Source of the DNA: a virus
DNA: 64,000 bases
Virus record (IMG/VR): IMGVR_UViG_3300035703_000076
Coordinates: 4,947 to 68,946 of that record
Reading direction: 5' to 3' (one strand)
Part shown: positions 35,115 through 57,273 of the stretch, piece after piece
Layout: each line of letters starts with the position of its first letter
Position numbering within the stretch: the stretch's first letter is position 1
Notes under the pieces: model-generated
Databases searched by the model: none
Told to the model about the DNA's origin: nothing
The model's input: the letters and a program-made list of their open reading frames with translations, nothing else
Position numbers and translations under genes: made by a program

Positions 35115-35827
35115 GCGAAATTCACGGAACATACGCAAAGGTTAGTATGGATGAGGTAATCCAACAAGCTAAATCTGAACTTGATATTGAGAACACGACC
35201 CAATGGGATTTGTTTTTGCAAGTTGAGGGAGAGGAAGCTGTTAGAAATCTTAATTGCCAATCGCTTGTTTACAAAAAGCAAGAATGTATTGATATTTGCG
35301 AGGGGCAAACTCCGTTGCCTTGCGGTTTTTATAAGTTTTTAGGATTAAGGTACTACGACCAAAGGTTGGGTAATTGCCAAAAAGTTATTTATGCAGACAC
35401 AATGTTTTTAAATGCAGAGGGTTGCAATAATTGGCCTTTCCCTGCGGGAGAAACAAGTTGGTTTACCAAAAATTGGTTTACCGCAATGCAGATAGTAAAC
35501 GGAAAGATGAGTTTTGTTAATGGACACGGTTTTGACAAAGCTGTTATTGCTTACCTTGGCTTTAATGTGGACGAGAACGGACACCTTATAATATACGAAC
35601 ACTACGTTAGGGCTGTTAAGGCGTATATGAAATATCGCTTTATGATGAAAAAGCCGCAGAACTATGTTCGTATGCAAATTGACGATGCTATGGCAGAATG
35701 GAAGGCGCAAAAAAGATTTGTTAAAGGGGAGGACAATGCCTTTAATGCTGATTTATACAGAAGGGAGATTATGGCAGCAATGACCGCTTTAATTGTTTCA
35801 CCGACAATACCAACTTGGACTTATTAA
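35111..35827 (+). CDS. tail ring/adaptor protein
   Basis: Position; LPC, AY.G..VDE.G...I motifs. Confidence 0.6.
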   Translation: MSEIHGTYAKVSMDEVIQQAKSELDIENTTQWDLFLQVEGEEAVRNLNCQSLVYKKQECIDICEGQTPLPCGFYKFLGLRYYDQRLGNCQKVIYADTMFLNAEGCNNWPFPAGETSWFTKNWFTAMQIVNGKMSFVNGHGFDKAVIAYLGFNVDENGHLIIYEHYVRAVKAYMKYRFMMKKPQNYVRMQIDDAMAEWKAQKRFVKGEDNAFNADLYRREIMAAMTALIVSPTIPTWTY

Positions 35828-35828
35828 G

Positions 35829-40745: not shown

Positions 40746-40749
40746 AACA

Positions 40750-41445
40750 ATGGGATTAACTGAATTAATAATCGGTGCTTATCAGGTTGATAAAGGCAAA
40801 AAAGCTATGAAAGCTTTGGAGGCTAAAGGAGTCGACCCTTTATCTCCCGAATATTTAAAGATGCAAGGTGTTGCAGAAGAAATGGCAAGGAGGGGTTTTA
40901 GTCAGCAAGAAATAGAGGCGTATATGAACGAGCAGCTTTCTGCCTCAAATGCCGCCTTTAATGCTCAACGCAATATGGCGGGGGGCAATCTTGCTCAAGC
41001 GATGGGTGCAACCCAAGTTTTGCAAATGCAAAAAGCAAATGCTGCAATGGCGGCTAAGGATGCAGAATTAAAAAGGTCAAATGTTCAGACATTGTTTAAC
41101 GTATATCAAACGCTGCAACAACAAAAGAACATAAACCAAGAAAGGTTTGATAGGCAAATGGCTGCTGCAAATGCCATTGCTGCTGCTGGAGCGCAAAATG
41201 TTGCAACAGGGATAACTGATATTAAAAACACAGTTCTTGGTGCGTTTACGGCTGGCGCAGGCAATACAGGGCAAAGTGGCTTCAAAACACCAGACCCTTA
41301 TCAACAATCGCCAACAACAACAACGGCATCTAACCCAATGGCAAGCAATCCTGAAATTAATATTTCTTCTTATCAAAGCCCATACGAAGGGCAACCGTAT
41401 AACCCTTACGATATAGGAGGATTTTCAGGCAATAAAGGATTTTAA
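40750..41445 (+). CDS. putative internal virion (ejection) protein
   Basis: A/Q/M-rich helical protein after the tail stabiliser. Confidence 0.6.
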   Translation: MGLTELIIGAYQVDKGKKAMKALEAKGVDPLSPEYLKMQGVAEEMARRGFSQQEIEAYMNEQLSASNAAFNAQRNMAGGNLAQAMGATQVLQMQKANAAMAAKDAELKRSNVQTLFNVYQTLQQQKNINQERFDRQMAAANAIAAAGAQNVATGITDIKNTVLGAFTAGAGNTGQSGFKTPDPYQQSPTTTTASNPMASNPEINISSYQSPYEGQPYNPYDIGGFSGNKGF

Positions 41446-41449
41446 TTAA

Positions 41450-42964
41450 ATGGCATACGTTATATCACCATACGCACAACCTGCGATACTGCCGAGAGAT
41501 AATACGGGGGTTCAACTTGTTTCTGAAATTGCCAAAGCTGGCTATGCTCGCCGTATGAAGGAAATGGAGAACAAGATGAAGTTGGAAGAAGAGGGAAGAA
41601 AGGCTTTTGATGAAGCGTATAAATATGCAAATCTTGATTTAAGCAAGGTTGACCCAATTTATCACGATGAGTTAAAGAGGCAAGCAGATGCTTTGGCTAA
41701 AGGAATGATTGAGGCTTACAAGCAAAATCCTGCATCGTTTAAATACAATACCGCCATTGCAGACGAGGCTCGGAGGCTAAGTACAATTAAAACGCAAAGG
41801 GAGGCTCAAAGTGCTGACATACAAAAGTCTATGGATGCGAGAAGGCAACTTGAAAAAGAAGGCAAGTTTGATGTAGCATTTAACGAGCTTGGGCAAGCTT
41901 ACTCGGCTTGGCAAAATGCAACAGACCCTGCTGAAAAAGCTAAAAAACAACAGGAGTTTATTGAAAGATACACTTCTGGCGATTTGAACATAGCAACGCC
42001 TAAAGTTGAAGATTATACTTGGGCGGGCAATGTGGCTAAAGAAGCTAAAGATTTAATACAAAGTCAACAAGGCAGAAAATTAGATTACACACAAAGGAAA
42101 ACATTTGAAGATGTAATAATGAATGATGAACGTAAGAAATCATCATTAGCAAAACAAATAGGATTAGACAGTTCAACACCCGAAGGCGAACAAGAACTTA
42201 GAAAAAGAATTCAAAGCTATTTGCCGTCAGGTGAAAAACCAGCTCCGCAAGGTGGGGGTTATGGATTAGGTTATGCTTCTTCCATAACAAATCCAACACC
42301 TGGCAGAGTGGATTTTGGTATGACTACGGAAAAACAAGGGGGAGGAACAATGACGGCACAATCTTCTGTTACCTCGCCCGCTCAAATTACTTTTTCTACT
42401 GCAATGCCAACAACGCTTGTTCAGCCATCAGTTTCATATGGCCTTGAAAATGGGAAAACATTAAATAACGATGCCGATTTTAAGGATAACAAGCTGTTTG
42501 AGGTCGCTTTGAGTAAAGTTGCTTTATTGCCTGTATATAAAAAGGGTGTTACAAGGAAAGGCGGGGTTGACGTTTCGGGAGAAATTGTTGACGACTTGAA
42601 TCTTAATGATGAAAGATTAAATGGCAAATATGAGTATAAGGTTTTTGCAATAGGTCAAGGAACGAAGGAAATTGGTGAAGATAGCAGAGACAAGCAATTG
42701 ATAACAAAAGATTTGTATATACCAATAAACCAAGTAAAAGACGCAGTTTGGGATAAGCTTGCTCAATCAGAAAAGCAAAGCGTTATGAAGAACATTTTTG
42801 ATATGAAGGAATTGGCGAGAGATTATAATTCTAAATTAAAAAGCCCAAGTAGCGAAAAGCCTGCTGCTGAAAAGCCGAAGGGTGAATATAAAATTACCAT
42901 GCAGTACAAGGGGGCTACTTATGGCAGAAATTCAGAAAAAGACCAATGGGTTAAAATAAAATAA
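41450..42964 (+). CDS. putative internal virion (ejection) protein
   Basis: 504 aa; position. Confidence 0.6.
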   Translation: MAYVISPYAQPAILPRDNTGVQLVSEIAKAGYARRMKEMENKMKLEEEGRKAFDEAYKYANLDLSKVDPIYHDELKRQADALAKGMIEAYKQNPASFKYNTAIADEARRLSTIKTQREAQSADIQKSMDARRQLEKEGKFDVAFNELGQAYSAWQNATDPAEKAKKQQEFIERYTSGDLNIATPKVEDYTWAGNVAKEAKDLIQSQQGRKLDYTQRKTFEDVIMNDERKKSSLAKQIGLDSSTPEGEQELRKRIQSYLPSGEKPAPQGGGYGLGYASSITNPTPGRVDFGMTTEKQGGGTMTAQSSVTSPAQITFSTAMPTTLVQPSVSYGLENGKTLNNDADFKDNKLFEVALSKVALLPVYKKGVTRKGGVDVSGEIVDDLNLNDERLNGKYEYKVFAIGQGTKEIGEDSRDKQLITKDLYIPINQVKDAVWDKLAQSEKQSVMKNIFDMKELARDYNSKLKSPSSEKPAAEKPKGEYKITMQYKGATYGRNSEKDQWVKIK

Positions 42965-45900
42965 TGGAAGATTTAAACAACCTACCCGAAACTTTACCTG
43001 CGGACTTCAAGTTTGACGAAGCGCCCGAAACGCTTCCTGCTGATTTTAAATTTGATTCCGAGGCTGAAAAAAAAAATTCTATTGGGAACGCTTTACCGAC
43101 TGGTGGCAAAGTTGGGGTATCCGCAACCCCTTCTACTGGAAATGAAGTTGCTGGTTTGCTTGGTGTTAAACCGATTAAGCCAAGTCAATACGCTGCTCCT
43201 ACCCCATTGGTTGAAAAGGCAAAAACGATTGTCGAGCCTGTTGCAAAGGGGCAAGTAATTGACGAAAAAAACAAAACTATCATTGAGCCAATTTTAATAA
43301 AAATTGGACAAGAAAAAGACCAACCATTACCCGCTTCGTTCGACAAAACGACTTTTGATAATTACAACAGAACCTTTGAGGATTACAAGCAAAAAAATAA
43401 ATGGCTTGGTGATGCTATAAAAAACAACACTTTAAATTACTATGTAAACAGCGGAGGTGCTTTAAGCGACTTGGGCAACATAGCAAGCGGAGTTTTATCT
43501 GCTCCTGCTTACAAAAAAGCGGAAGAAGAATATAAAAAAAGCCCAAGTTATGCTCAATTTGCAAAACAAATACAACAATCTAAAAACGCTTTCTTTGAAG
43601 CAAAAGCAAAAGCCGACAAAGAAACTGAAAGACAATCAGAAGCTATTGCACAATCATTAGGCGGTTGGGGTTCTTTAGTTGACAAAGTTGGCAATGCTGA
43701 TGTTGAAAAAATAAGGGAAGGTGTAGATTCTTTCCTTGAAAAAAATAAAATTGAATCAGATAGCCCAATAGCTTACAAACTTAGAAATGAATTAAAAGCC
43801 CAAGCCGAATTTAAGCAAATTGAGCCAAAGATTAATAAGGAATTTGAGGCTCAATATCAAAAACTTTATGGCACAACGCCCGAAGAAGATATTAAAAAGG
43901 AATATGGCGTAACAGTTGAAAAAGCCAAAGGTATAAAGGCGGCAAAGCAAGAACTTGAAAAGAAAAGATTATTGGAAGACAAAGCTCTTGAAGCTGAATT
44001 TAAACCCGAATACGAAAGCCTTGGTTCTTCATATAAGGCAAAGACAACGGAAATAGACAGCCAAATTGAAAACGACCCTGAACTAAATTCTTTTGCACAA
44101 CAACTTGGCCAAGAAAGGCAAAGTAGATATCAAGCAATGGTTGACAACGGGCAAATGTCTGTTGAACAGGCTAATGCAGAAATGAATAGTCCTGCGTCAA
44201 TAGAAGAGGAGAAAAAAAAGATATTGCAGAAGGTTAATGAAAAATATGGAAAGGTTTACGAAAGTGCTTTTGCTGAATATCAAAAAAGCTTAAATGAAGT
44301 TGGTTCTCGTTACAAATCTGCTTATAGGCAACAAGAAAACGCAAGGGTAGAACAAGCAAACAAAAAGATACAATCAGAAATTGAATCTTTGAAAGGACAA
44401 TTTGAAATAAGCCCTGCCTTAATTGAGAAAAGAAAGAAGGCTTATGGCGAAGCTTATACAAAAGTTTCAGAATCAGGATTGAAAGCGGAAATTGCGGCAG
44501 GCAGAACTTTGCCATTTTTGGCGCAAGCAGGAATGTCGTTATTAATGGGTCTTGGAGGTGGATTAAAGGGCGTTGGTGCTGAATTTGACAACAAAACGCT
44601 GTATGACCTTGGTGAATCGCTTGAAAGTGATTTCAAAATCAATGTAGGCGAATCTAAAGAGTTTTCCGATTGGCTTGATTCAAGCAAGTTGACAGTTGGC
44701 ACGGGTAACATTATTGGCCGTATGATTCCTGGTATTGGATTAACCGCCGCCGCTGCCGCTTTAACAAAAGATTGGGGATTAACAGCAAGGCTTGCAACAA
44801 CGGCTGTTACAAGTTTCGCTGCTGAATCTTCAGATATGGCAGGGACAATTAGGGATGAAGTTTTACAATCAACTGGCGACCCTGCAAAAGCGGATGATGC
44901 CGCAAGGGATATGTGGAGGTCGCAATTGTATCTATTCCCTTTGTATGGGATTGAGGGTGCGCCATATATTGATGAATTTTTTACTCAATTAGGAAAAAAA
45001 ATTGCGCCAAAGATTTTTGCAGAAACGGCAAAGGGTGCAAGAAAAACACTTGGACAATGGGCAAAAGAAACTGCTGTAAAAACATTAGCAGGTGGCGTTG
45101 GTGAAACTATCACAGAAATAGCCCAAGAGTTTCCTCAAAACATAAACGAAGAAGCTATTAGAAACGGAAAAGAAATTAAAGGAATTGTTGACCAAATTGA
45201 CGTTTACAATGAGGGCGCAACCCTTCCTAAATTAAAGGAAACAATTGTAACGGTATCGCCTTCTACGTTAATAATGGGTGCTACTCCTGTTTTTGTTTCT
45301 TCTGCTTACAACAAAGCAAAAAGCAGTTATTATGAAAGGAGTGTTGACAATTATTTAAACTCTGCTTCAATAAGTGCTTCTTTAGAAACAAGCCCCGAAC
45401 AATATTTGTTTAACATTAACAGAGAAAAGGGAAAGAATTTTACAGGAACGCTTTTAAATACTTTATTTACAAGTGGGAAAATAAGCGAAAGCGAGTTTGA
45501 TAGGCTTAGTGAGAAGATGGTAAATATGGAAGCCTATAATGAAGTTGTCAAAAAGGCCAAAGCAAAAGGCACTGAAATTGGTAATTTAGTCGGATACAGG
45601 CTTTATGACCAATATATCTCTGCAACTCAAGCTTACGAATCTGAAAAGGATGAACTTGCAAAAGAAGTTCTGAAAAAACAAGCAGATGAAGCAAAGGCTC
45701 AATTTGTCAATCTTTTGCAAGGTAAAGGGGCAAATATTTCTGTAATGACTTTAGGTAACGGACAGGAATACGCCTTTTTGCCTGACGAAATGATGTTTGC
45801 ATTGCAGTTTCCAAATATTAGGGAAAGTATTAAAAATGGCGACATTGGAGTGGTTGTTGGTGGTGACAAAGCAGTTGTTGGCGATTTGTTAAATGAATTA

Positions 45901-46971
45901 AATTCGTTAGAAAAAGAGCCGCAAGTTGAAGAACCCACCCAAGCTCAAGAAGTTGTTGTTGAAGAAAAACCCATACCAACAGAAGCTGTTTTAGTTGAAA
46001 GGCAAAAAGAAAAAAGGGATGCTGAAATTGAGGAAGTTCAAGCGTTGCGTGATGACTTGGGGCAAGAAGTTGAACTTATCAACGACATACCTTCTTTTAT
46101 TGACGATGTGATTGATAGGATTGACCTTGGAATGATGGTTGCGCCTGAAATGCTAAGTGATGCAGTTGGTGAACTTGACAAGCAATTTGACAAACTTCAA
46201 GAATATAAAAACGACCCATCAAGAACACACACAACTGCTCAAATTGATGCAATGATTGATGTTCTTTCTGCGGTTAAAACAGAGATTCAAGATTATCAAT
46301 TAAAACAATCAGAAAATGAACAACCAACAAAAACCGAGCCTACAACTGAGGCTGCTCCGAGCGTTGAGCCAAGCCAAACAATCGAAACAAACCAAGTAAC
46401 TCAATCACAAACCACAAATACAAACCAAAATGAACAAAAAACCAAAATTGGGGAGCGGGGAACGCTTCAAGAAAATGACCAACAAGTTGGAGAAGGAGGG
46501 CAAGTTCAAGGAATCAGCGAAGAAAATCGCGGCATCAGCGGGGATGAAAGCCTACGGGAAAGCCAAGATGCAGAAGATGGCACAGGCGGGCAAGAAGAAA
46601 ATGTAACGGAACAAGGGGGTGTAACAGCCCCCTCTCCTAAAACACAACCCAATGAAACAAAAACAGAACAAGAAAAGCCCCTGCTGGAAGGGGTACGAAA
46701 TGGTGGGAATGAAACCCAAGGCGGGCAAGAAAGTACCGAACTGCGTGCCGAAGCCCAAAACCAAGAAGAAGTAAAAGCAACCATTGCAGATGCCGTAGCA
46801 AAGTTTTATGCTATTGAAGGCAAAGGTTCTCAAAAGCGTGAGGCAGCAAAAGCGTATAGGCAAACTTTAGAAAAAATGCCAACGGTAAAAAACATTTTTG
46901 ACAATATAAAGCCTATATTTGCACAACTTGAAAGAGAAGGAATTATAACAAAATCTAAAGAATGTCCATAA
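42964..46971 (+). CDS. large ejection/internal virion protein (1335 aa)
   Basis: Coiled coils, Gly/Ala-rich membrane-like segments, E...E..QE motif, N-terminal PETLPADFKFD x2. Confidence 0.7.
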   Translation: MEDLNNLPETLPADFKFDEAPETLPADFKFDSEAEKKNSIGNALPTGGKVGVSATPSTGNEVAGLLGVKPIKPSQYAAPTPLVEKAKTIVEPVAKGQVIDEKNKTIIEPILIKIGQEKDQPLPASFDKTTFDNYNRTFEDYKQKNKWLGDAIKNNTLNYYVNSGGALSDLGNIASGVLSAPAYKKAEEEYKKSPSYAQFAKQIQQSKNAFFEAKAKADKETERQSEAIAQSLGGWGSLVDKVGNADVEKIREGVDSFLEKNKIESDSPIAYKLRNELKAQAEFKQIEPKINKEFEAQYQKLYGTTPEEDIKKEYGVTVEKAKGIKAAKQELEKKRLLEDKALEAEFKPEYESLGSSYKAKTTEIDSQIENDPELNSFAQQLGQERQSRYQAMVDNGQMSVEQANAEMNSPASIEEEKKKILQKVNEKYGKVYESAFAEYQKSLNEVGSRYKSAYRQQENARVEQANKKIQSEIESLKGQFEISPALIEKRKKAYGEAYTKVSESGLKAEIAAGRTLPFLAQAGMSLLMGLGGGLKGVGAEFDNKTLYDLGESLESDFKINVGESKEFSDWLDSSKLTVGTGNIIGRMIPGIGLTAAAAALTKDWGLTARLATTAVTSFAAESSDMAGTIRDEVLQSTGDPAKADDAARDMWRSQLYLFPLYGIEGAPYIDEFFTQLGKKIAPKIFAETAKGARKTLGQWAKETAVKTLAGGVGETITEIAQEFPQNINEEAIRNGKEIKGIVDQIDVYNEGATLPKLKETIVTVSPSTLIMGATPVFVSSAYNKAKSSYYERSVDNYLNSASISASLETSPEQYLFNINREKGKNFTGTLLNTLFTSGKISESEFDRLSEKMVNMEAYNEVVKKAKAKGTEIGNLVGYRLYDQYISATQAYESEKDELAKEVLKKQADEAKAQFVNLLQGKGANISVMTLGNGQEYAFLPDEMMFALQFPNIRESIKNGDIGVVVGGDKAVVGDLLNELNSLEKEPQVEEPTQAQEVVVEEKPIPTEAVLVERQKEKRDAEIEEVQALRDDLGQEVELINDIPSFIDDVIDRIDLGMMVAPEMLSDAVGELDKQFDKLQEYKNDPSRTHTTAQIDAMIDVLSAVKTEIQDYQLKQSENEQPTKTEPTTEAAPSVEPSQTIETNQVTQSQTTNTNQNEQKTKIGERGTLQENDQQVGEGGQVQGISEENRGISGDESLRESQDAEDGTGGQEENVTEQGGVTAPSPKTQPNETKTEQEKPLLEGVRNGGNETQGGQESTELRAEAQNQEEVKATIADAVAKFYAIEGKGSQKREAAKAYRQTLEKMPTVKNIFDNIKPIFAQLEREGIITKSKECP
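46316..46399 (+). CDS. candidate nested ORF, +1 frame (27 aa)
   Basis: MNNQQKPSLQLRLLRALSQAKQSKQTK*; A-rich upstream; same frame as the next two nested ORFs. Confidence 0.35.
   Translation: MNNQQKPSLQLRLLRALSQAKQSKQTK
46430..46606 (+). CDS. nested small basic protein, +1 frame (58 aa, KPKLGSGERF type)
   Basis: MNKKPKLGSGERFKKMTNKLEKEGKFKESAKKIAASAGMKAYGKAKMQKMAQAGKKKM*; A-rich initiation region. Confidence 0.75.
   Translation: MNKKPKLGSGERFKKMTNKLEKEGKFKESAKKIAASAGMKAYGKAKMQKMAQAGKKKM
46652..46774 (+). CDS. nested small basic protein, +1 frame (40 aa, PCWKGY...VPNCVP type)
   Basis: MKQKQNKKSPCWKGYEMVGMKPKAGKKVPNCVPKPKTKKK*. Confidence 0.8.
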   Translation: MKQKQNKKSPCWKGYEMVGMKPKAGKKVPNCVPKPKTKKK

Positions 46972-47498
46972 TGATACTCGATTCTCCAATGATGGTTATG
47001 CCTGAGTTTCCAAAAAAACTTGACGCAAAGATTGTTAGCCTTTTAATGCCACGTTTAAATGACGAGTACAAGGCTTTCTACTTCTACCGAGCCGCTTCAA
47101 ATTACTGCAAAGGTGTAGGTTACGAAAAAGCCGCAGAGTTCTTTGCAGCCGAATCTCTTGATGAACTTTCCCACGCAAAGGGTATTGAAACATACCTTGT
47201 TGATTGGAACATTGACGTTAATTTGCCTATCGTTGAAACCCCACAAATTGTTTTTAGTGGACTATTTGAGGTTCTTGTAAAGGCTTATGAACTTGAGTAC
47301 AACCTTTGGAAAGAGTACAACGATACTTCTGATGAGATTTTTGGCAAAGGCGATATTGCCACGTTTAACTTCCTTAGAACATATACGGATATACAAACCA
47401 AGTCTGTTGCTGAATACAGCGACAAGCTCAATATGCTTCAAGGGGTTAATGTGATGAGCAAGTTTGAACTTCTTACTTTAGAGAAAAAATTATTCTAA
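46962..47498 (+). CDS. ferritin-like protein (non-haem ferritin fold)
   Basis: LN.E..A...Y, FF...S.DE..HA, A...E, D..T.NFL.....Q ferroxidase-type pattern. Confidence 0.85.
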   Translation: MSIMILDSPMMVMPEFPKKLDAKIVSLLMPRLNDEYKAFYFYRAASNYCKGVGYEKAAEFFAAESLDELSHAKGIETYLVDWNIDVNLPIVETPQIVFSGLFEVLVKAYELEYNLWKEYNDTSDEIFGKGDIATFNFLRTYTDIQTKSVAEYSDKLNMLQGVNVMSKFELLTLEKKLF

Positions 47499-47499
47499 T

Positions 47500-50400
47500 A
47501 TGGCTTGCGAGGTCAAATACCAAGGGCAGACACTTTCTTTTGAAGAGTTTGCCGAAAAGTTGCATAATGGACTTTTGGACGAATTTATTGCCCAAGGTGT
47601 TGTTAAGAATGTACCAACCATAAAATCAATTCAAGATGCCGTACAAAAGCAAAGCGCAGAGGGCGTTCTTTCACGCCAACAAGGAGAAGCTGGAAAAGCA
47701 GGGGGTGAACGTCAAGGAATGGGACAAGGCAAGCAAGGGCAAGAAGCTGCCAAGCCGAGCAAAGAAGAAATAACTTCCGCAGAAGCAACGGTTGCTCTTG
47801 ATGAAGAAACCGAACTATTGCTTGAAGGACTTGCCGCAGAAAGGAGAAGGGCGGGCAAATATACAGTTGACGGAGTAACATATACAAGAAACGAAAAAGG
47901 ACAAGGCATTGTTTCGGAAGAAGGTGGGGATGTTAGGTTTACAAATGAACCTGGCGGTGGTGGCGTTGTCGTTCCTTTCAGATACAAACTTGTTGAAGCA
48001 AACACAGTTCAGCCTTCACACGAAGGAGGTTTGAGAAATCCAAACTTCTTTATACCCGAAGCGCAACCTAAAAATAGGAACGACCAAGCAAGTTTATTGG
48101 CGGAGGATGATTTTGCCAACAACCCAAGGTTTGGCGAGCTTGGACAAGATACAGGGGCGTATAAAGGTGCGCCCGTTGTAAACGAAAGGGGTGAAGTTAT
48201 TCAAGGAAACAACAGGGCTGCTGGACTTAAAAAGGGATATGCTGTTGGCAATAAAAAGTACAAGCAAGACTTAGCTGCAAATGCAGAGAAGTTTGGGTTT
48301 ACCAAAGAGCAAGTTGAAAGCATGGAAAACCCCGTGCTTGTTCGTGAAGTTATTGTAACTGATGAAAAAGCTATTGAACTTGGAAACTACGATGTAAAAG
48401 ACCTTGAAACCGCAGGAAAAAGAAGGATTGACCCTTCTGCCCTTGTTCGTAGGCTTCCTTCAAAAGTTAAAGCGAGCCTTGCTAAAGTTATTTCAGCAGG
48501 GGAAACGATTAAAGAATCTATTAAAGAAAATGCGGATGAGATTTATCAACTTATACGTCCGTATATCAATACAAGTATTGCCAACACTATAATCACAAAT
48601 GGCAAATTAAATTCTGTTGGTATTGAGGACGTTGAGGGCTTATTTACGCAGTTCTTGTTTCAGAATGGCGACCCTAACCTTCCTCAAATGTTTGAAGGTT
48701 TGTCTAATACGCAACGTGAGGGTATTAAAAAGTCTTTACCATACTTGCTAAGTGCAGGAGCAGGCAAAAGTATCATACCCGATGTTCAAGAAGCGATAAT
48801 TGCTATTTCCGATTTTATGGCAAGCGGTAGCTCTGATTTTAATGCTTGGCTTTCTCAAGGGGATATTTTTGTAGACAACAAAACGCCAAAAGATATTTAT
48901 TCTCCGCTTGCTTTAAAGATTGCAGAGATATTAAATACAGCCAAAACACAAGCCGATATAGTTGGAACTACTACAAGGTCAAAAACAGAACCAACATCTT
49001 TTGTTAAGTATAGCGAATTGACAAAAGGAACAGAAGCGGGTTTATTTGAGGAAGCTAAAGAGGGTATTTCAAAAAAAGAAGCAATAAAACAAGCATTTAA
49101 TGTAGATTACAATGAAAGAAAAACTTATTCAAATAGTCAAAGAATCGAAGAAAAGGCTTATAGAAAGCAAGAAGAAGAAAACTCAGTTAAGCAAAAATAT
49201 AAAGATGACCTTGCCAAAGGATTAGATAATTTAATTACTAAGCTCGGAGGAAAGAAAAATATAACACCAGAAGAAAGAACTTTTATAATAGAAGATTTAC
49301 GAAATATAATAAAAGGTCTTGTTGGGTTAACTTATGAGGAAATAAAAGAAATGGTTGTTCCTGCTTTGAAAAAGTTAGGATTAACTTCTCGTGAAGTTGA
49401 CGATATTTTAGTCGAAGCAACTACCGAAGAAAGAAGAAGGCCAGACTATTCAGAACCTTCTTTAGAAAGAGAAACTGAAACAAAGAAAAGTAGAACATTA
49501 GAAACGGTTGAAACTTTTTCTTCAAAAAGAATAGCGGAAAGAATTAAAAAACTTGAAAACTATTACTACAAAGTTCTTCCAAATGAAGAAGTTAAAGCTG
49601 CCGTAAATAAGATTTTTGAACTTTATTCTGTCGAAGAAATCGCTGACGATTTCCTTAACCCTGATGTAAATTCAAAAATGTATGGGCCTGTAAAAACGGT
49701 AATAGGTCTTGAACTTATGAAACGATTCAGTAAGGAAAAGAACTATGAAATGTTTAACAAGGTCGCAAATGAATATGCAGAAATAGCAAAAGAAGGGGCA
49801 AGAACAATTCAAATTATAAACATATTTGATATTGTAAAATCAATGGGAGGGATATTTGCTAAATTAAAAGCAAAGGAAATTATACAAGAAAGAAACCAAA
49901 GATTGCGCGATTTGAACAAACAGAAGATGGAGCAAATTGCTATGCAACTTAAAAATGCAAATACGCAAGCAATAGATGAGGCATTAGGCGATGAAAAGAT
50001 AAGGGAAATAGTTGGCAAGATTTTACAAAAATATGCGCCCCAAACAACAACAACTGATGAAAAACAAAAAGAGGCGAGTAAAGCAAAATCAAAAACAAAT
50101 CTTAATGAAGGTAGGATAAAAGAGCTTATTGATAAAAAGAAATTATTAAAAGAAAAAATAAAAAAAGGCGGCTATTTTACAAGCGGAGGAATTACGCCAG
50201 AGCTATTCGAGCTTGCTGCTACAAATATCGAATTAGGTACAAGAACATTTGCTGAATTTTCAAAGCAAATGACAAAGGATGTTGGTAAGGCTATTAAACC
50301 ATATTTACTTGAATTATACAAAGAAGGCAAGTCTATATTAAAAAATCAAGGACAAGACGTTTCTGATACAACAAGTAATGTTGACGCATCTTCTGAATTT

Positions 50401-52992
50401 TCTTCTATGTTTGAAGATAAGGACATAAAAACCCTTGTTGGTAAAACTATACAAGAAAATCTTGAAACTATATTACGCAAAGGACTTGGTGAATCTCAAA
50501 GAAGTAAAACAATAAAAGAAATCACCGACAAGCTTGGACTTGAGCCGTCTGACGCTGCTTCTATCGTTGATAAGATAAATTCAGAGTTTGACAAAAGGGT
50601 TAAAAATAAGCAAGAAGGCATAAAGAAAAAGCTATTAAAGGGTCTTAATAAACAAACAAGAGAGAGGAAAGAGTCTTGGGAAAAATTAGCAGAAGCGTCA
50701 AGGTCGGGAATTTTATCTGATGAAGAATTAAAGCCTTACTTAGAGAAAGCTTTTGGTATAGAAGAATTAAGCGAAAAGGACGCAAATGAAATAGAAAGGA
50801 TTGCAGATAATATAACAAAGTTTCCAGAAGGCAGCCCTTTTCAAACAAGGGAAATTTATAGGCTTGCTCAAAAATTAAACTCTTTATCTCCTTTTACTTT
50901 TTCTGAAATTATGACTTCCATTTTTTACGGAAACATACTTTCAGGGCCTAAAACCCAAGAAGGCAACTTTGTTTCAAACTTATCAAAAGCAATAGAATTA
51001 TTATCCATTGACACTATAAGAGCTATTTCAAAGGGTGATTATAGATTTTTAGGCACAGCCTTAAAGGGGTTATTAATAGGCTTGCAAGGCGAAGGTATTC
51101 CTGGTTTTAAATCTGCATTGCTTACAGGGAAAATACCAACAAGGGAAAAAATTAAAGGCTTTAGGGGTATTGAAGATTGGAATCCGACAAGTCTTGTAGG
51201 AAAAGGTTATAAGCAGTTGAAATATGTTACGAGGCTTATGGGTGGTGTTGATGCTTTATATTACGAATCAGCAAAATATAAAAGGGCTTTTCAGTTGGCT
51301 TACGATAAAGCCAAAAGAGATAATAAGGGCATGACATCTTCGGAAGCTTATCAAAAGTTTATAAACGAAATTTACAATAACGACCCTACTTTAAAAAATT
51401 TTATAGCACAAGCAGATGCAGATTATAATGAAAGGGTGAGTCAAATAAATGATGACTTGGATTTAACTGACGAGCAAAGAAAAAGTCAAATTATGGAGGC
51501 TGGTATAGATAGGGATTCACAAGTATATTATTATATATTTGGAAATCTACCCGAAGATATACAAGAAGAATCTAAAATTTACGCCAAAAGAGCAACGTAT
51601 ACACAAACGCCTGAAGGGTTTATTGGCCTTTTAGCAAGGAACTTAAATTCTTTTATACAAGGAGTTCCTTTAATGAATAGGGTTATTCCTTTTGTTAATA
51701 TTATTGGAAACGTAGCAAATGATGCTTTTAACTATGGAAACTTCGGTTTAGCACCTATTGCTCGTTCTGTGACAGAAAAGGGCTCTATAAGCGAAGCTAT
51801 TAATAGGAATCTTGAAAGGTTTGGAATAGTAACAACCAATAAGTATAAGTTTAACGAAAAAAGCCCCTTAACTGAAAATGAAAAAGCGGATTTAAGGGCA
51901 AAGGCTGTTCTTGCTTTTTCTTTAAGTGCCGCAAGTATGTTGTACTTATTGAGGCCGAAAGATGATGATGATGAAGATTATGAAACAGAAGTTTCGGGTG
52001 CAGGCCCAAGTACGAGAAAAGAAAGGGATGAACTTTTAGCAAAAGGATGGAGGCCATATTCAATAAGAATAGGAAATAATTATGTAAGCTATAAGTATAC
52101 TCCTTTTGTTTTATTATTTGCAATTGTTGGAAACATTCAAGACCAAACAAGGTATAAATCAAGTGATGATGAGCTTGAACTAAAGGTCACAAATGCTTTA
52201 TTTAAAACATACTCAAGAACTTTTTTTGATATGACCTTCTTAACAGGGTTGGCTGATTTATTTTCTGCAATAGCAAATAAAAACGATAAAGGCGTGTGGC
52301 AACAAGACCTTGGTAAGTGGGTATCTAAAAACCTAAAAGCTGCCGTTGTACCGTTTTCAAATTTTATTGAGCAATCTTATAATTACTATCTTGATTATAT
52401 GGATATGCCAATGCCAGAAACAAGAAGAAGCGAAGGTGAAAAAACATTTACTGCTAATCTTTTAAGCGGCATACCCATAATAAGCAATATGTATAATATG
52501 CCAAGAATGAATGCACTTGGCGAGCCTATAATGGTTGAAAATGAATTTTTGATTACTGAAAAGAAGGAATCAAAGGGTATATGGAAACTTTTTGAAGATA
52601 AAAAATATAGGCCAACCTATCCTTATCCAAATGAAATTGCTGTTATTGATGAAGATGGTATAAAGAATATTTCTTCTAAAGAATATTCGACCTTTATGAA
52701 AGTTCGAGGCAACTTTATAAAAAGTGTAATAAACCATAGAGAAAACAAAAGTAAACTTGAAGGCTATCCAATAAAAGATGGCAAAAAAGAGCCTTTTAAA
52801 AAAGAAATAAACGAAGTGTTTTATAACGGAAATAAATTTGCTACTCACTTTATTTTACTTCAAAGAAGAGGCGAAAAGTTAGATGAAGAAAATATAGAAA
52901 AAATTATACCTAACTATATGAAAAAGATAAAAGCGTATAAACAACCAAAAGAAGAGTCAAAAAAGATTGACTACGTAATCAAGGGTTACTAA
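47500..52992 (+). CDS. giant polyvalent/ejection protein with DdrB-associated ParB-like domain
   Basis: Y.LVEA....PSH, QP..R, GAPVV...G.VIQGN.R motif; C-terminal PF...P/G..PYS....YVSY region resembling LPD38-type tails. Confidence 0.7.
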   Translation: MACEVKYQGQTLSFEEFAEKLHNGLLDEFIAQGVVKNVPTIKSIQDAVQKQSAEGVLSRQQGEAGKAGGERQGMGQGKQGQEAAKPSKEEITSAEATVALDEETELLLEGLAAERRRAGKYTVDGVTYTRNEKGQGIVSEEGGDVRFTNEPGGGGVVVPFRYKLVEANTVQPSHEGGLRNPNFFIPEAQPKNRNDQASLLAEDDFANNPRFGELGQDTGAYKGAPVVNERGEVIQGNNRAAGLKKGYAVGNKKYKQDLAANAEKFGFTKEQVESMENPVLVREVIVTDEKAIELGNYDVKDLETAGKRRIDPSALVRRLPSKVKASLAKVISAGETIKESIKENADEIYQLIRPYINTSIANTIITNGKLNSVGIEDVEGLFTQFLFQNGDPNLPQMFEGLSNTQREGIKKSLPYLLSAGAGKSIIPDVQEAIIAISDFMASGSSDFNAWLSQGDIFVDNKTPKDIYSPLALKIAEILNTAKTQADIVGTTTRSKTEPTSFVKYSELTKGTEAGLFEEAKEGISKKEAIKQAFNVDYNERKTYSNSQRIEEKAYRKQEEENSVKQKYKDDLAKGLDNLITKLGGKKNITPEERTFIIEDLRNIIKGLVGLTYEEIKEMVVPALKKLGLTSREVDDILVEATTEERRRPDYSEPSLERETETKKSRTLETVETFSSKRIAERIKKLENYYYKVLPNEEVKAAVNKIFELYSVEEIADDFLNPDVNSKMYGPVKTVIGLELMKRFSKEKNYEMFNKVANEYAEIAKEGARTIQIINIFDIVKSMGGIFAKLKAKEIIQERNQRLRDLNKQKMEQIAMQLKNANTQAIDEALGDEKIREIVGKILQKYAPQTTTTDEKQKEASKAKSKTNLNEGRIKELIDKKKLLKEKIKKGGYFTSGGITPELFELAATNIELGTRTFAEFSKQMTKDVGKAIKPYLLELYKEGKSILKNQGQDVSDTTSNVDASSEFSSMFEDKDIKTLVGKTIQENLETILRKGLGESQRSKTIKEITDKLGLEPSDAASIVDKINSEFDKRVKNKQEGIKKKLLKGLNKQTRERKESWEKLAEASRSGILSDEELKPYLEKAFGIEELSEKDANEIERIADNITKFPEGSPFQTREIYRLAQKLNSLSPFTFSEIMTSIFYGNILSGPKTQEGNFVSNLSKAIELLSIDTIRAISKGDYRFLGTALKGLLIGLQGEGIPGFKSALLTGKIPTREKIKGFRGIEDWNPTSLVGKGYKQLKYVTRLMGGVDALYYESAKYKRAFQLAYDKAKRDNKGMTSSEAYQKFINEIYNNDPTLKNFIAQADADYNERVSQINDDLDLTDEQRKSQIMEAGIDRDSQVYYYIFGNLPEDIQEESKIYAKRATYTQTPEGFIGLLARNLNSFIQGVPLMNRVIPFVNIIGNVANDAFNYGNFGLAPIARSVTEKGSISEAINRNLERFGIVTTNKYKFNEKSPLTENEKADLRAKAVLAFSLSAASMLYLLRPKDDDDEDYETEVSGAGPSTRKERDELLAKGWRPYSIRIGNNYVSYKYTPFVLLFAIVGNIQDQTRYKSSDDELELKVTNALFKTYSRTFFDMTFLTGLADLFSAIANKNDKGVWQQDLGKWVSKNLKAAVVPFSNFIEQSYNYYLDYMDMPMPETRRSEGEKTFTANLLSGIPIISNMYNMPRMNALGEPIMVENEFLITEKKESKGIWKLFEDKKYRPTYPYPNEIAVIDEDGIKNISSKEYSTFMKVRGNFIKSVINHRENKSKLEGYPIKDGKKEPFKKEINEVFYNGNKFATHFILLQRRGEKLDEENIEKIIPNYMKKIKAYKQPKEESKKIDYVIKGY
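47636..47773 (+). CDS. nested small basic protein, +1 frame (45 aa, MP(F/Y)KSKAQ type)
   Basis: MPYKSKAQRAFFHANKEKLEKQGVNVKEWDKASKGKKLPSRAKKK*. Confidence 0.8.
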   Translation: MPYKSKAQRAFFHANKEKLEKQGVNVKEWDKASKGKKLPSRAKKK

Positions 52993-53156
52993 ATCAACCC
53001 CGCCTTTCTCTTGTACTTCAATATTCTTTCATCAACAGTTGTTTGGCAAAAATCTTGTGTTCTGTAAACCCCGCCAAGAAGTTCAATATCTTTCTGTTTG
53101 ATATAAACCCTAACTGCAACTTTCTTTAGTTCAGGTGGTAGCTTTTTTCTTGGCAT
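52989..53156 (-). CDS. small DNA-binding (RHH-like) protein, counter-oriented (55 aa)
   Basis: MPRKKLPPELKKVAVRVYI...; TATATTTG box 4 nt before the ATG. Confidence 0.65.
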   Translation of the reverse strand: MPRKKLPPELKKVAVRVYIKQKDIELLGGVYRTQDFCQTTVDERILKYKRKAGLI

Positions 53157-53254
53157 AATGCAAATATACACAATTTCAACAAGTTAAGTCAATAAAAGCG
53201 ACACGAAATCAAATGCAATTATTGTCAATGTTATAATAGTATAATTTTGTGTCC

Positions 53255-53827
53255 ATGCCAACACCATCAGCACCATCAAGTGTACTTATACCTTCGATTA
53301 AGGTTTGCATGAATAACAATTGTGCGAAGGTTGAAATCTACGACACAACCTGCCCTTATTCTAACAGCAATTTAAACGGATGGGGTTTGCCGAATGTGGC
53401 AATTACAAGTATTGTTTCTGCTACGTTAGACATCAGCGTTTACAATCCTGTTACGGAAACTTTCTCTATTGAAACTTCGGGGATTGACGTTTCTTCTGTT
53501 CTTCCTAACATTAGCAATATTCCATACATAGCCACTATTGGGAAGTCTGATATTTATTACCTTGTTGTAACATATACAACTGATACGGGTGATGTATATA
53601 CTGCCGAATATTACTATGTTAACCTATGCGATTACTACTGCTGCTACGAAAAGAAAGCTGCGGCAAGTTGTGGTTGTCAAGGCGGAACAATAGAACTTTT
53701 CAACATTTGGACGCTTCTTCAATCAATTGAAGCAACGACTTGTTGCGGGGTGAATATTGCCGCCATATTGGATATGATTAAAAAGTTAAAGAAATATTGT
53801 TCTGACTGCGACTGCGGTTGTAAATAA
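53255..53827 (+). CDS. tail-fibre hub/adaptor with Cys-rich C-terminus
   Basis: D.T..Y...N..GWG.PN; ends CSDCDCGCK. Confidence 0.6.
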   Translation: MPTPSAPSSVLIPSIKVCMNNNCAKVEIYDTTCPYSNSNLNGWGLPNVAITSIVSATLDISVYNPVTETFSIETSGIDVSSVLPNISNIPYIATIGKSDIYYLVVTYTTDTGDVYTAEYYYVNLCDYYCCYEKKAAASCGCQGGTIELFNIWTLLQSIEATTCCGVNIAAILDMIKKLKKYCSDCDCGCK

Positions 53828-53837
53828 ACTTACCAAA

Positions 53838-54614
53838 ATGTGTAACTGCAAATCAAATAATTGCACTTGTTGCAACGGAATATTAAGAGGCCCACAAGGC
53901 CCTGCTGGCGTACAAGGGCCACAAGGTGTTGCTGGAACAAATGGAACGAACGGGACAAATGGCACGAATGGAACGAACGGGACAAATGGTCAAGACGGTG
54001 TTGCCGTTATTGATAGTTTGAGTTATACTGAAAACCAACAAACGAATGTTTCAGGCGGATATGCTGATTCGGGTTTTCAAAATGTGTCTGCTCCAGGCTC
54101 TATTTCTAATATACAAATAAGAACGGGTTCTGTTAACGACCTTTGGTTTAGAAACGAAGATGATGCTATTCAATTTCAAATGGTATTATCAAACACCAAC
54201 ACAGGCGGAAGGATTATGCAAGCTGTTGGGGTTGCCTTTAACGACCAAGGAAATTTAGGAGGTGCTGTTTACGCTGCTCCTTTTCAAGGTTTTACAAAGG
54301 GTAATTCAGAGCCAAGTTCTAATATTCTTTTGCATATTGAAGGAACAATAACTCGCATAACAAATACAACATTTAGAAGCCATTCTAAGTATTTTATAAC
54401 TCAACCAAATATTGCCTCTGTTCCTTTTACAGGTTTTTCTACTGGCGTATTTGAAGACCCCGCAGGGAGGCTTTCTGAATCTGTTTATGACATAACTTAT
54501 TCAACTGATTTTGATAACGTAAACGGTTTATATTTAATTCCATTTATACAAAATGAATTTGCCAACGATTGGGGGTTAATTTTCTTTACCGCTTGGGGTC
54601 TTAAAAAAGTATAA
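53838..54614 (+). CDS. collagen-like fibre protein
   Basis: N-terminal Cys cluster, G-X-Y repeats including (GTN)x6. Confidence 0.75.
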   Translation: MCNCKSNNCTCCNGILRGPQGPAGVQGPQGVAGTNGTNGTNGTNGTNGTNGQDGVAVIDSLSYTENQQTNVSGGYADSGFQNVSAPGSISNIQIRTGSVNDLWFRNEDDAIQFQMVLSNTNTGGRIMQAVGVAFNDQGNLGGAVYAAPFQGFTKGNSEPSSNILLHIEGTITRITNTTFRSHSKYFITQPNIASVPFTGFSTGVFEDPAGRLSESVYDITYSTDFDNVNGLYLIPFIQNEFANDWGLIFFTAWGLKKV

Positions 54615-54616
54615 CA

Positions 54617-55540
54617 ATGCCAAAAATAATTAACACACAGATATTTACGGTTAACGCAGCAGGCGCAACATTTACCATAAATGATTATGATACATTTGGT
54701 GAATATGTTATTTCGGGTGCTGCTGCCCTTGTAGCAAACAACAGCGTCATATTTGGCGGAACTCCGCTTTTGAATATGAACGTAAAAGTTCGCTACGAAG
54801 CGACTTGCACCAATGCAGGAGGAACTGTAACCATTTTGGGAACTGTTCTTAACAATACCCAAATGGGTCAACCTTGCTTTGCTGATTGCAATTACAATGG
54901 GGCTTCTTGGGATGTTCAAGTGTATGCTGATGCTTCTTCAACAGGATGGATTGTAAGCACCGATTTTAGCCCAGGTTCTGTTAACACGGCAGCTATTGCC
55001 AACAATGCAGTAACTCACGCTAAATATCAAACCATTGCTGACCAAACCTTTTTAGGGAACGTATCAGGTGGTGTTGCAAGTCCCTCCGCTTTAACCGTTG
55101 CTCAAATGCAAACGGCTCTTGGTGTAAATAGTGGGTATGCTACTGTTTATTATGCAAGTATAACAATACCAACGGCAAGTGTTTTGACGTTAAACACAAC
55201 TCCGTTGACGATTGTGGCTGCCCCAGGTGCAGGGTTGGCTATACAAGTTGTTTCTGCAACCGCAAGTATGACCTACAACACAACCGCTTATGCTACAAAT
55301 GGAGTTTTAAGTTTAATCTCTTTAGGTTCTGTAATTAGCCAAGCCGCCTTAACTGCAAATGGTTTTTTGTTTGGAACAGTAACAAGAAATGTGTCTTTTG
55401 AAATAACAAAATCTGCTCTAATTACAGACACTCAAATTGGGGTAAACACACCATTGCTTGTTCAGGTTGATACAGCAGACCCAACGGCAGGAGATAGTGA
55501 TATAACAGTAACCGTACTTTATCGTATATTGCCAATATAA
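54617..55540 (+). CDS. virion fibre/structural protein
   Basis: T/A/V-rich; VNTAAIANNAVT.AK fibre motif. Confidence 0.7.
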   Translation: MPKIINTQIFTVNAAGATFTINDYDTFGEYVISGAAALVANNSVIFGGTPLLNMNVKVRYEATCTNAGGTVTILGTVLNNTQMGQPCFADCNYNGASWDVQVYADASSTGWIVSTDFSPGSVNTAAIANNAVTHAKYQTIADQTFLGNVSGGVASPSALTVAQMQTALGVNSGYATVYYASITIPTASVLTLNTTPLTIVAAPGAGLAIQVVSATASMTYNTTAYATNGVLSLISLGSVISQAALTANGFLFGTVTRNVSFEITKSALITDTQIGVNTPLLVQVDTADPTAGDSDITVTVLYRILPI

Positions 55541-57273
55541 TGTTAACAGCAGCCGACATAAAAAGACAGTCTACCTTAGCTTGGTGTTGCCTTGGTAAAA
55601 GAATGGGCGATTCTTTAGTTATGGAAAAACAAGGTCAAAAGTGTGAAGGAAATATGAGGGAGATTGGCTACGGCTTTCTTTATGTAAATGCAGTAAAGGG
55701 TTATGTTCCCGAAAATGATGTTGTAACGGCCTATTCAAGTGGTTGCCAAATGAATTTTGAAGGCAATCAGTTTATAATCAACAGCTATTTTGATGTAGCA
55801 ACAAATACATTTTACGAAATGTATGATAGTGCAAATGCTGATAGCGTAGGAAGTTGGCTTTATTTTGACGCAACGCAAGTAACATCAAGTTCAGCAGGTG
55901 GTGGAACAGTTTCTTTATCATACACATACGACCCTGTTACAGGTGTTTTAAGCATAGATGGCGGTGCTGATATCTTTCAAGTTACTTATGATAAGTTTTT
56001 TGAAAACATATACCTTACCAATGAAGATGGAAATGTTTTGACATTAGGGTTTTATGGAGAAAAGACATTAAATGGCTGTTCGGAAGTTGTTGTTCTTGCC
56101 GACAAACCTTGTCTTGGGCCAACCGAGGTTCAGTCAATTTTAAACAAGGCAAGCAAGAATTGCGACTGCAACTGCGAGGATTATGTTAACTCTGAACCAA
56201 CAAGCAAAAGAGGCGAATCGCTTTATTTAAGTGATGCTGAATTTAATTGCATTGATGGGGTTGTTTATATGACAATAAACTTTTCATATTCAGGCTCTCC
56301 ATTGCCTAATTCTTTTGGAATTTATGTAAACGGAAACATTGTGTATACATTTTCAGACACAGGGTTAAGTAGCGGAAGTTTTGTTACAACTGTTACAAGC
56401 CCAGAAATTGCGGCATTGGCTCAAAACGCCACTTATGATATAACAATTTACGACAACTACGGAACAACTTCTTCTTGGGCTTCAAACACAATTGAATCAA
56501 TTCCATTGAACACTTGTACCCCTCCCGAAGTTTGTTGTACTGTATGCGACCTTAGTAATGGGCAGTTTTTTGTTTCGGCAATGAACATAAATGGAGATGA
56601 CTACAATTTATTGAATCCTCCACCTGCTCCATTTGACGCATATATGGGAACGTATATAACCTTTGATGGAAGCAATGGCTACACTTGGTCGCCTATAACA
56701 TCCGATGATAGCTATACTTATAGCTTCGATTGCGAATCAAATGTTGCTGTTATGGATACCCCTGCGCTTAGAGAGGTGTTTTATTTAACAATAGATTTCA
56801 ATTGTGCTGCAACAGGCGCAACGGGTTATGCAATAATTGAAGATTCAGAAGGAACCCCATTGCCTGTGATATTCACATTAGAAGTGTCAGAAGAATTTAC
56901 GAAAGATTGTAGCGGGGAATGTTGCAATATAGAAACATTGAATGGTTACACTTTAGATTCTATTGGCAAGTTTTACTATACAGGCCCAGATAGCGGTTCT
57001 TACATAGCCCTGCCTGCTGTTGGGGAGGATGTAATAAAGTTTGTTTTCATCAGCGAATCGTCTGTTGAGGTTTACACTAACGATGTGTTAACGGGAACTT
57101 ACAACTATACTTATACGCCATCAAGCGGATTGTTGTATATCGAATCTCCGCCTGATGATTCCAATGGTTATCTTCAATTAACTTGCGATTGCGGCTTGTT
57201 TATTTACACGGTGTTTATTCCTGATGGTGATGGGTCGTATACAATAGTGAATTATTACTTTCAATCAATATAA
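55540..57273 (+). CDS. acidic Cys-containing structural protein with repeated beta domains
   Basis: 577 aa; repeated Y.Y.Y.P..G.L.I motifs. Confidence 0.65.
   Translation: MLTAADIKRQSTLAWCCLGKRMGDSLVMEKQGQKCEGNMREIGYGFLYVNAVKGYVPENDVVTAYSSGCQMNFEGNQFIINSYFDVATNTFYEMYDSANADSVGSWLYFDATQVTSSSAGGGTVSLSYTYDPVTGVLSIDGGADIFQVTYDKFFENIYLTNEDGNVLTLGFYGEKTLNGCSEVVVLADKPCLGPTEVQSILNKASKNCDCNCEDYVNSEPTSKRGESLYLSDAEFNCIDGVVYMTINFSYSGSPLPNSFGIYVNGNIVYTFSDTGLSSGSFVTTVTSPEIAALAQNATYDITIYDNYGTTSSWASNTIESIPLNTCTPPEVCCTVCDLSNGQFFVSAMNINGDDYNLLNPPPAPFDAYMGTYITFDGSNGYTWSPITSDDSYTYSFDCESNVAVMDTPALREVFYLTIDFNCAATGATGYAIIEDSEGTPLPVIFTLEVSEEFTKDCSGECCNIETLNGYTLDSIGKFYYTGPDSGSYIALPAVGEDVIKFVFISESSVEVYTNDVLTGTYNYTYTPSSGLLYIESPPDDSNGYLQLTCDCGLFIYTVFIPDGDGSYTIVNYYFQSI

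Follow-up and report, generated by a model that had tools for sequence, protein, structure and literature searches.

Does a 45-codon open reading frame (ORF) lying wholly inside one of the largest genes of a phage encode a protein of its own, so that one piece of DNA serves two genes? The DNA considered here, called the window below, is a 64,000-nucleotide stretch (positions 4,947 to 68,946) of the IMG/VR record IMGVR_UViG_3300035703_000076. The record is a complete phage genome of 68,946 bp with terminal repeats, and the GC content of the window is about 0.37. On the plus strand, a giant ORF of 1830 codons (47500-52992) encloses the whole of the small one, referred to as S (47636-47773), which has an ATG start and a TAA stop. 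The translation of S is MPYKSKAQRAFFHANKEKLEKQGVNVKEWDKASKGKKLPSRAKKK, its N-terminal start being MPYKSKAQRAFFHANKEKLEKQGVNV. The giant frame lies one base earlier and reads the DNA of S as DAVQKQSAEGVL, or, with its flanks, as ...TIKSIQDAVQKQSAEGVLSRQQGE... An earlier note on this DNA had described S as an ORF in the +1 frame of the 1830-codon gene, and both its coordinates and its reading were confirmed. Judging from the comparisons below, the 138 bases at 47636-47773 are probably truly dual-coding, specifying both the S protein and a linker of the giant protein.

S as a protein family

The giant gene contains 8 same-strand alternative-frame ORFs of at least 30 aa besides S, and the size of S alone is not beyond what chance provides. 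What makes S more than a chance ORF is the existence of homologues. A word-indexed search of 5.8 billion proteins returned 188 relatives of S (24-79 aa, E<=0.01, E-values down to 5e-17), with identities of 66-91% among the 120 matches listed; these relatives are called as separate genes elsewhere, some of them on 40-108 kb contigs. When 1.84 billion cluster representatives were searched with a profile, 1060 clusters (50% identity) matched at E<=0.001, including 346 at E<=1e-10, with a best value of 2e-23. S stretches confirmed by tblastn number 408 in IMG/VR and 43 in contigs of metagenome-assembled genomes (MAGs). Thus, the statement in the earlier note that MP(F/Y)KS.AQ proteins form a common small phage family proved accurate. 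Its further suggestion of a widespread arrangement is borne out in metagenomic phages; it does not extend to deposited phage genomes, where tblastn with S gave a single weak and uninformative match (22 residues, E=1), located between two small annotated genes of Phage C75C1.

In an alignment of 50 relatives (A1), residues M1, P2, Y3, S5, Q8, F12, L19, G23, E28, K34, and P39 are invariant. The invariant or near-invariant positions F12, L19, K21, Q22, G23, V24, V26, E28, W29, A32, S33, K34, G35, L38, and P39 are all present in the S of the window, which also shows the other traits of the family: a length of about 45-60 aa, M-P-Y/F-x-S-x-x-Q directly at the start, the blocks KQGVNVxEW(D/N) and SKGKKLP, and a basic, lysine-rich tail. 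The AlphaFold2 model of S, computed with an alignment, has three helices (residues 6-14, 16-21, and 26-33) and a pLDDT of 90.2. The possibility that the +1 ORF is a chance product of a low-complexity linker, with no relation to any gene, draws on the 8 other alternative-frame ORFs, but it is refuted by the homologues, the clusters, and the confident fold prediction, and its probability is practically zero.

As for known families, no match for S was found in Pfam or PHROGs, and the fold search against PDB with the S model also gave no match (best E 8.5). The same search against BFVD returned uncharacterised small phage proteins only (best E 0.057). Pfam DUF3008 (PF11450), which is presumed here to resemble S in its N-terminal motif, was confirmed by no model match. 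As a candidate family for S it was rejected, with no hmmscan match for S (E<=1) or for four distant members of the S family (E<=0.1), and PF11450 likewise matched nothing (E<=10) in the six-frame translation of the entire phage genome, leaving the DUF3008 cut-off (24 bits) unreached. In the protein atlas, the nearest Pfam-carrying cluster is a viral cluster of 55 aa with a score of 0.88, in which 15% of members carry PF11450; this serves as a lead only.

Several divergent copies were also observed. Locus L122 carries two tandem free-standing S-like copies that are shorter (2604-2717, 37 aa, and 3016-3135, 39 aa); they have the MPYKSKKQ start in common and differ in the second half. In L120 (693-823), a copy in a free-standing MAG context is split across two frames by a frameshift, which is either a sequencing error or a sign of a pseudogene. 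The S type of L121 (5020-5175) is divergent, having a different second half and matching the alignment at 45% identity. It, too, is nested, in the usual relative frame, within a 2991-codon ORF on a Polaribacter MAG contig, with DALQKQSAE as the giant-frame reading. Nesting thus extends beyond the core subfamily.

Arrangements of S across loci

To describe the arrangements of S, the best 80 of the 408 confirmed IMG/VR stretches and the 43 MAG contigs were used, all retrieved by similarity to S. ATG-started S is present in 115 of these 123 loci, which together with the window gives 117 copies; in the 8 remaining loci, all of them free-standing, S starts with a non-ATG codon or at a shifted position. 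Of the 117 copies, 76 are free, 35 are nested, and 6 are in-frame N-terminal fusions. Free copies are packed tightly between neighbouring genes. Nested copies lie in ORFs of 393-3374 codons, as contained in the retrieved loci, and the frame of the giant equals the S frame minus one base in 35 of 35 cases. ORFs covering S in the other frame occur in 8 loci and reach just 32-149 codons.

The position of S within the giant ORF varies from 44 to 1812 codons, and the giants are otherwise barely alike. When the giant protein of the window was compared by blastp with those of L025, L058, and L081, little matched beyond the overlap; a match to its N-terminal domain was obtained in L069 only, and to a second region (aa 161-284) in L081 only. 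Short contigs from a freshwater DNA run match the window inside S only (47665-47752), with unlike sequence on both sides, which fits S as a conserved island amid varied contexts.

The closest relatives, L001 and L002, match the interval 42000-56000 of the window over about 2.2 kb at 96% identity around the giant start. L001 additionally matches a 223-nt piece, and the rest of the interval is diverged or replaced. This indicates that the S cassette is surrounded by mosaic structure.

Regarding in-frame fusions, 49 of the best 150 profile matches are proteins 124-1019 aa long that carry S at their very N-terminus, and 1 carries it at the C-terminus. The latter, P0151 (586 aa), is the sole listed protein with a C-terminal S domain (residues 539-584), and it may be either a true fusion of an upstream part with S or a frameshifted gene call. 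A scan of 16 in-frame fusions against Pfam and PHROGs revealed DUF6321 at the C-terminus in 4 and PHROGs of unknown function, and nothing beyond these. In L051 (6001-7353), P0174, P0176, and P0226, an N-terminal S is followed by a low-complexity or glycine-rich middle part and a C-terminal DUF6321; P0157, P0162, and P0212 contain G/Q/N/M-rich and glycine-zipper-like stretches.

Selection on the two frames

Pairwise differences at S codon positions 1, 2, and 3 are 0.24, 0.142, and 0.374 among nested copies (32 unique), and 0.277, 0.197, and 0.566 among free ones (52 copies). In nested copies S position 3 is thus the most variable and S position 2, which is position 3 of the giant frame, the least variable, a pattern of S coding damped by a second constraint. 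Mean amino-acid identity over the same 114 nt supports this view, being 0.732 in the S frame vs. 0.496 in the giant frame (39 unique nested copies).

According to 42 pairs with at least 85% nucleotide identity, 237 changes are synonymous in S and nonsynonymous in the giant frame, 105 are nonsynonymous in both, and 56 are nonsynonymous in S and synonymous in the giant frame, the opportunities for these classes being 0.152, 0.502, and 0.232, respectively. Among 19 disjoint nearest pairs, changes synonymous in S only outnumber those synonymous in the giant frame only by 146 to 41, with an expected share of 39.6% (binomial p=8e-27). A comparison of the window with L001/L002 shows 7 sites that vary within the overlap, 6 of them silent in S and all 7 nonsynonymous in the giant frame; beyond the overlap, silent giant-frame changes are common. 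As judged by these substitution patterns, S is the more constrained frame in nested copies and is under purifying selection.

The giant frame leaves its mark in codon choice. T occupies 1.4% of S third positions in nested copies vs. 18.6% in free ones. Before AA, AG, or GA, where a T would create a stop in the giant frame, it was found at 0 of 537 nested and 188 of 874 free sites; at sites without such risk, the counts are 15 of 679 and 171 of 1102, respectively. T at giant codon position 1 amounts to 1.6% in the overlap vs. 16.1% in the rest of the giants. The giant-frame overlap is rich in E (18.5%), G (14.5%), and Q (11.7%), and F, Y, W, and C are nearly absent. In AT-rich loci, GC content at third positions of the S core reaches 0.77 in nested copies (n=34) vs. 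0.38 in free ones (n=38), the latter matching their surroundings, and the overlap has a higher GC content than the rest of the giant ORF in 38 of 39 cases (0.514 vs. 0.345 in the window). The comparison with free copies shows that the giant frame, too, is shaped by selection. As expected from dual coding, both frames are open over the full overlap in diverged relatives, and selection is seen on both. These comparative signals are unusually clean, since free-standing S provides a built-in control for dual-coding codon choice.

The same counts bear on the possibility that the giant ORF is not a single gene across S, in which case the downstream protein would start after S and the frame would be open by chance in purine-rich DNA. 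Coding DNA rich in lysine and glutamate has few stops in some frames, and free S often lies 1-13 nt behind a large gene. Among free loci with an upstream gene of at least 800 aa, 10 of 16 have this gene in the nested-type relative frame, ending 1-10 nt before the ATG (counted from the locus table), so that transitions between free and nested S by one stop gained or lost are plausible. However, extrapolating from the 188 of 874 T sites of free copies, a chance-open frame would be present in about 1-2% of S genes, compared with 35 of 117 actually open, and nested copies avoid T even where no stop could result. Besides, the parts upstream of S extend up to 1812 codons, and in the window the 45 codons preceding S are conserved coding sequence with no stop. 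A giant gene split at S is thus very unlikely.

Start site and predicted translation of S

The start codon of S is ATG in 40 of 40 unique nested loci, and the region before it differs from the rest of the same giants. In positions -20 to -1, the fraction of A is 0.586 vs. 0.368 elsewhere and that of G is 0.126 vs. 0.223. The predicted minimum free energy of positions -40 to +3 is -1.82 vs. -5.12 kcal/mol for the background, this interval being more weakly structured in 40 of 40 loci and the surroundings of the start in general in 39-40 of 40. Shine-Dalgarno-like words occur in 5 of the 40 leaders, the clearest by eye being those of L019 and L057. Most nested loci are AT-rich, and several MAG labels name Bacteroidota. 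In this phylum ribosomes do not respond to Shine-Dalgarno sequences, and Baez et al. 2019 (PMC6847099) report that adenines upstream of the start and a weak structure tune initiation in Bacteroidetes.

A different possibility is that S is not produced by itself but fused to the giant protein through programmed frameshifting. A +1 shift into S would attach the S tail to the upstream part, and a -1 shift out of S at its lysine-rich end would attach S to the downstream part. A-rich runs can act as slippery -1 frameshift sites, the tail of S is indeed rich in lysine, and natural in-frame fusions of S exist, as the 49 N-terminal cases and the C-terminal one mentioned above demonstrate. Nevertheless, heptamers of the X_XXY_YYZ type in the S frame are no commoner in nested copies (11 of 40) than in free ones (21 of 68), have no fixed place, and are absent from the window. 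A conserved ATG with a start-type leader would be superfluous for a frameshift, and the stop codon of S is kept in all nested copies. Hence frameshifting appears quite unlikely.

Another explanation takes nested S for a silent relic absorbed by the giant gene, which would then be translated in the giant frame alone, the ORF persisting owing to recent ancestry. Consistent with this, the nested label clusters on the S tree in a way compatible with a single origin, and gene callers do not report nested S. Recent ancestry, however, accords poorly with nested copies that differ by up to 35 of 120 nt while 40 of 40 retain the ATG and the open frame. A gene translated in the giant frame only should also vary most at giant position 3, the opposite of what is observed, and neither the bias towards S-synonymous changes (146 vs. 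41, and 6 of 7 sites between close relatives) nor the start-site properties of the leader in 40 of 40 loci are anticipated for a relic. This explanation is therefore assigned a low probability.

As for RNA, contigs of relatives from RNA libraries of two studies cover 47359-47931, by which neither transcription nor its strand or ends are shown. Metagenomes from freshwater, plankton, and the subsurface, produced in several studies, contain the stretch or close relatives of it, and two RNA libraries have small shares.

Several points weigh against dual coding of the overlap. The nested copies are related to each other, so that their counts are not independent events; the tree of S, built on 39 columns, is unresolved, and although the nested label needs at least 14 changes on it, a single origin remains compatible with it. 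Retrieval by similarity, together with the ATG in the regular expression, may under-sample broken copies of S. Five nested loci are located on GC-rich contigs (0.58-0.65), in which an alternative frame that stays open is less remarkable. A natural variant from a DNA run (K34R) is nonsynonymous in S and synonymous in the giant frame. Finally, translation of S from within the giant gene, and of the giant frame across S, is predicted from sequence comparison.

The giant-frame motif as a probable shadow of S

The earlier note had described (D/N)A(I/V)Q(K/E)QS as a recurring motif of giant virion proteins and suggested that it might be the shadow of an overprinted gene. A wider form of it, (D/N/Y/H)A(V/I/L)(Q/R/P)(K/E/Q)(P/Q/R/S)(S/G/K), recurs in the giant frame of every nested locus listed. 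The residue over the ATG of S is D, N, Y, or H, which corresponds to all four NAT codons, and this position is therefore set by the start codon of S rather than by the giant protein. With 35 of 117 copies of S nested in one and the same frame and the S frame being the more constrained, the idea of a shadow is supported.

The idea would have been undermined by motif-bearing genes whose +1 frame is usually closed or lacks an ATG. Since a set of 31 giant-frame peptides proved too variable for a search pattern, a subset of 10 peptides was used, which gave degenerate codon-blind patterns. Searched against IMG/VR, these produced 42 pattern matches, of which 17 were confirmed as loci, on 7 new contigs; every one of the 17 contains an uninterrupted S with an ATG start in its +1 frame. 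Scanning 141 sources in six frames with an HMM detected no decayed S within any giant ORF; it found one S per source, except for the two tandem copies of L122 and the frameshifted copy of L120. A word search with giant residues 38-97 returned 7 close relatives only and is uninformative on prevalence.

The earlier note also expected the arrangement to be largely unannotated. In agreement with this, a set of predicted proteins numbering about 15 billion lacks 5 of 6 nested S proteins, that of the window among them, and contains 4 of 4 free ones. The free entries are mostly annotated as 'hypothetical protein'. In one respect the earlier interpretation has to be corrected, since we infer that S is the ancestral and dominant frame and the linker reading the derived, overprinting one.

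Proposed mechanism, origin, and role

In the mechanism proposed here, ribosomes starting at 47500 would continue across the overlap and yield the giant protein, reading the DNA of S as a linker poor in hydrophobic residues and rich in E, G, and Q that leads from the N-terminal domain to the DdrB-ParB domain. The 45 codons before S encode a conserved domain and contain no stop, which implies that ribosomes starting at 47500 must read through the overlap. Separate ribosomes would initiate at the internal ATG (47636), stop at the TAA (47771-47773), and release free S. The A-rich, unstructured leader before this ATG would be of the type used by hosts that lack Shine-Dalgarno recognition.

S would be ancestral, and the linker reading overlaid on it. 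Recoding of third positions of nested S to G or C, with T nearly eliminated, would free the giant frame of stops and of bulky residues encoded by T-first codons and leave the S protein itself unchanged. That S is older appears from its being free in most loci and found on contigs that binning assigns to several phyla; the linker exists only where S is nested and is less conserved.

A simple fusion of the two neighbours of S was rejected as the full account of how nesting arose, because homologous modules switch sides and the position is not syntenic. Thus, in L075, L080, L090, and L058 nested S is followed by a module whose homologue precedes free S in L043, L077, L074, and L045.

The N-terminal domain of the giant protein is conserved in its own right, residues M1, A2, C3, E16, L21, and K42 being invariant across four lineages with S near the giant start. 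This domain of about 45 residues, beginning with M-A-(x)-C, precedes S in the window, L069, L105, and L049 (alignment A4). A similar ending, 'DL..(I/L/F)K.I.', precedes S deep within the giants of L058, L075, L080, and L090. The domain may travel together with the S cassette. As for the linker, an AlphaFold2 prediction of giant residues 1-300 with 6 sequences has a mean pLDDT of 35.6, too poor for comparing linker disorder with the surroundings.

A broader reading, possible but doubtful, treats S with its open minus-one frame as a portable dual-coding linker cassette, which would join modules of giant polyproteins and provide homology for module shuffling and would still yield free S, which would require an N-terminus of its own and serve as a handle or partner in packaging or piloting the giants. 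It builds on S being the one conserved DNA stretch common to otherwise unrelated giants, with differing depths and with homologous modules now on one side of it, now on the other. With low confidence, S might work inside the virion as a partner of large ejected proteins or a handle on them, a role for which its N-terminus would have to be free; the gene context, the almost exclusively N-terminal position in fusions with large, low-complexity proteins of virion type, and the basic tail all point in this direction.

Features of the locus

The features discussed are summarised in Table 1. The giant gene belongs to a structural module, with terminase and portal genes upstream. Its protein matches Pfam ddrB-ParB (PF18763) at aa 158-284 (E 2e-25, 89.7 bits), and among PHROGs it matches a DarB-like antirestriction family and an internal virion protein.

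Table 1. Coordinates of S, its host gene, and adjacent features in the window
Feature	Position	Strand	Basis
S, nested gene for a small basic phage protein (predicted)	47636..47773	+	Homologues, AlphaFold2 three-helix model, selection on the S frame
Probable dual-coding stretch in the giant frame, residues 46-92: DAVQKQSAEGVLSRQQGEAGKAGGERQGMGQGKQGQEAAKPSKEEIT, E/G/Q/A/K-rich linker	47635..47775	+	Composition, T-first-codon avoidance
Giant gene for an 1830-residue virion or polyvalent-type protein, host of S	47500..52992	+	Pfam, PHROG, structural-module context
N-terminal domain of the giant protein, about 45 residues	47500..47634	+	Alignment A4, blastp vs. L069, pLDDT 62-73 for residues 1-30
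A-rich, G-poor, weakly structured leader; candidate internal translation-initiation region	47616..47635	+	Composition and minimum free energy, 40 nested loci
DdrB-like ParB domain, first recognisable domain past the linker	47971..48351	+	Pfam
178-residue gene immediately upstream of the giant gene, phrog_16594 (function unknown)	46962..47498	+	Recurrent neighbour of giant genes and S

The side on which the phrog_16594 protein is encoded varies: its gene directly precedes the giant in L049, L069, and L105 and free S in L074, but follows the giant in L007 and L024. The host of S is the last of three very large late genes in tandem (35793-52992), with 1650, 1335, and 1830 codons, respectively. 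Among these, only the third has PHROGs matches, and none were obtained for two smaller late genes of 504 and 577 codons either. Recognisable structural proteins of the phage are few, namely terminase, portal, and a weak match to a major tail protein.

Significance and comparison with known systems

These results describe one conserved small gene repeatedly nested in the largest genes of many uncultured phages, which adds an unannotated predicted protein to their genomes. A recurring 'motif' of giant virion proteins can be explained as the shadow of a reading frame rather than as a functional peptide. The locus also offers a natural system for studying how a new reading, the linker, is overlaid on an old gene, and it provides a clean genetic handle: in the window the T of the S ATG is the third base of an Asp codon of the giant, so that ACG in its place would abolish the start of S and leave the giant protein as it is. 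Full-text literature searches found no description of the S family or of its nested arrangement.

Regarding the host gene, the closest known likeness is to polyvalent proteins. According to Iyer et al. 2017 (PMC5512222), DdrB-ParB polyvalent proteins are encoded among late virion genes; the words 'linker', 'overlapping', 'frameshift', and 'low-complexity' are absent from the main text of that paper, which describes no gene embedded in a linker. The host of S likewise has a DdrB-like ParB domain and a place among the late virion genes, and the giants are mosaic and fast-evolving. By its domain and location the giant gene falls within the polyvalent type, with only one Pfam domain above the cut-off.

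Out-of-frame nested phage genes are textbook rarities that gene callers systematically exclude. In phage lambda, the Rz gene contains all of Rz1 in its +1 frame, and phiX174 has nested genes as well. S resembles these in being a small gene inside a larger one on the same strand, with both frames open and an internal start of its own. Unlike in Rz/Rz1 and phiX174, the host is a giant gene of the virion or polyvalent type, and the overlap falls on a linker between domains, not on a folded or functional part. Here the older and more conserved partner is the embedded gene, which is found free-standing or as an in-frame N-terminal domain as well. Moreover, the cassette is found at depths of 44 to 1812 codons in giants that are otherwise barely alike. 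The spanin subunits Rz and Rz1 are functionally linked, whereas no such link is known for S and the giant protein. Comparative evidence thus gives good support to nested S as a recurrent new form within the known class of nested out-of-frame phage genes.

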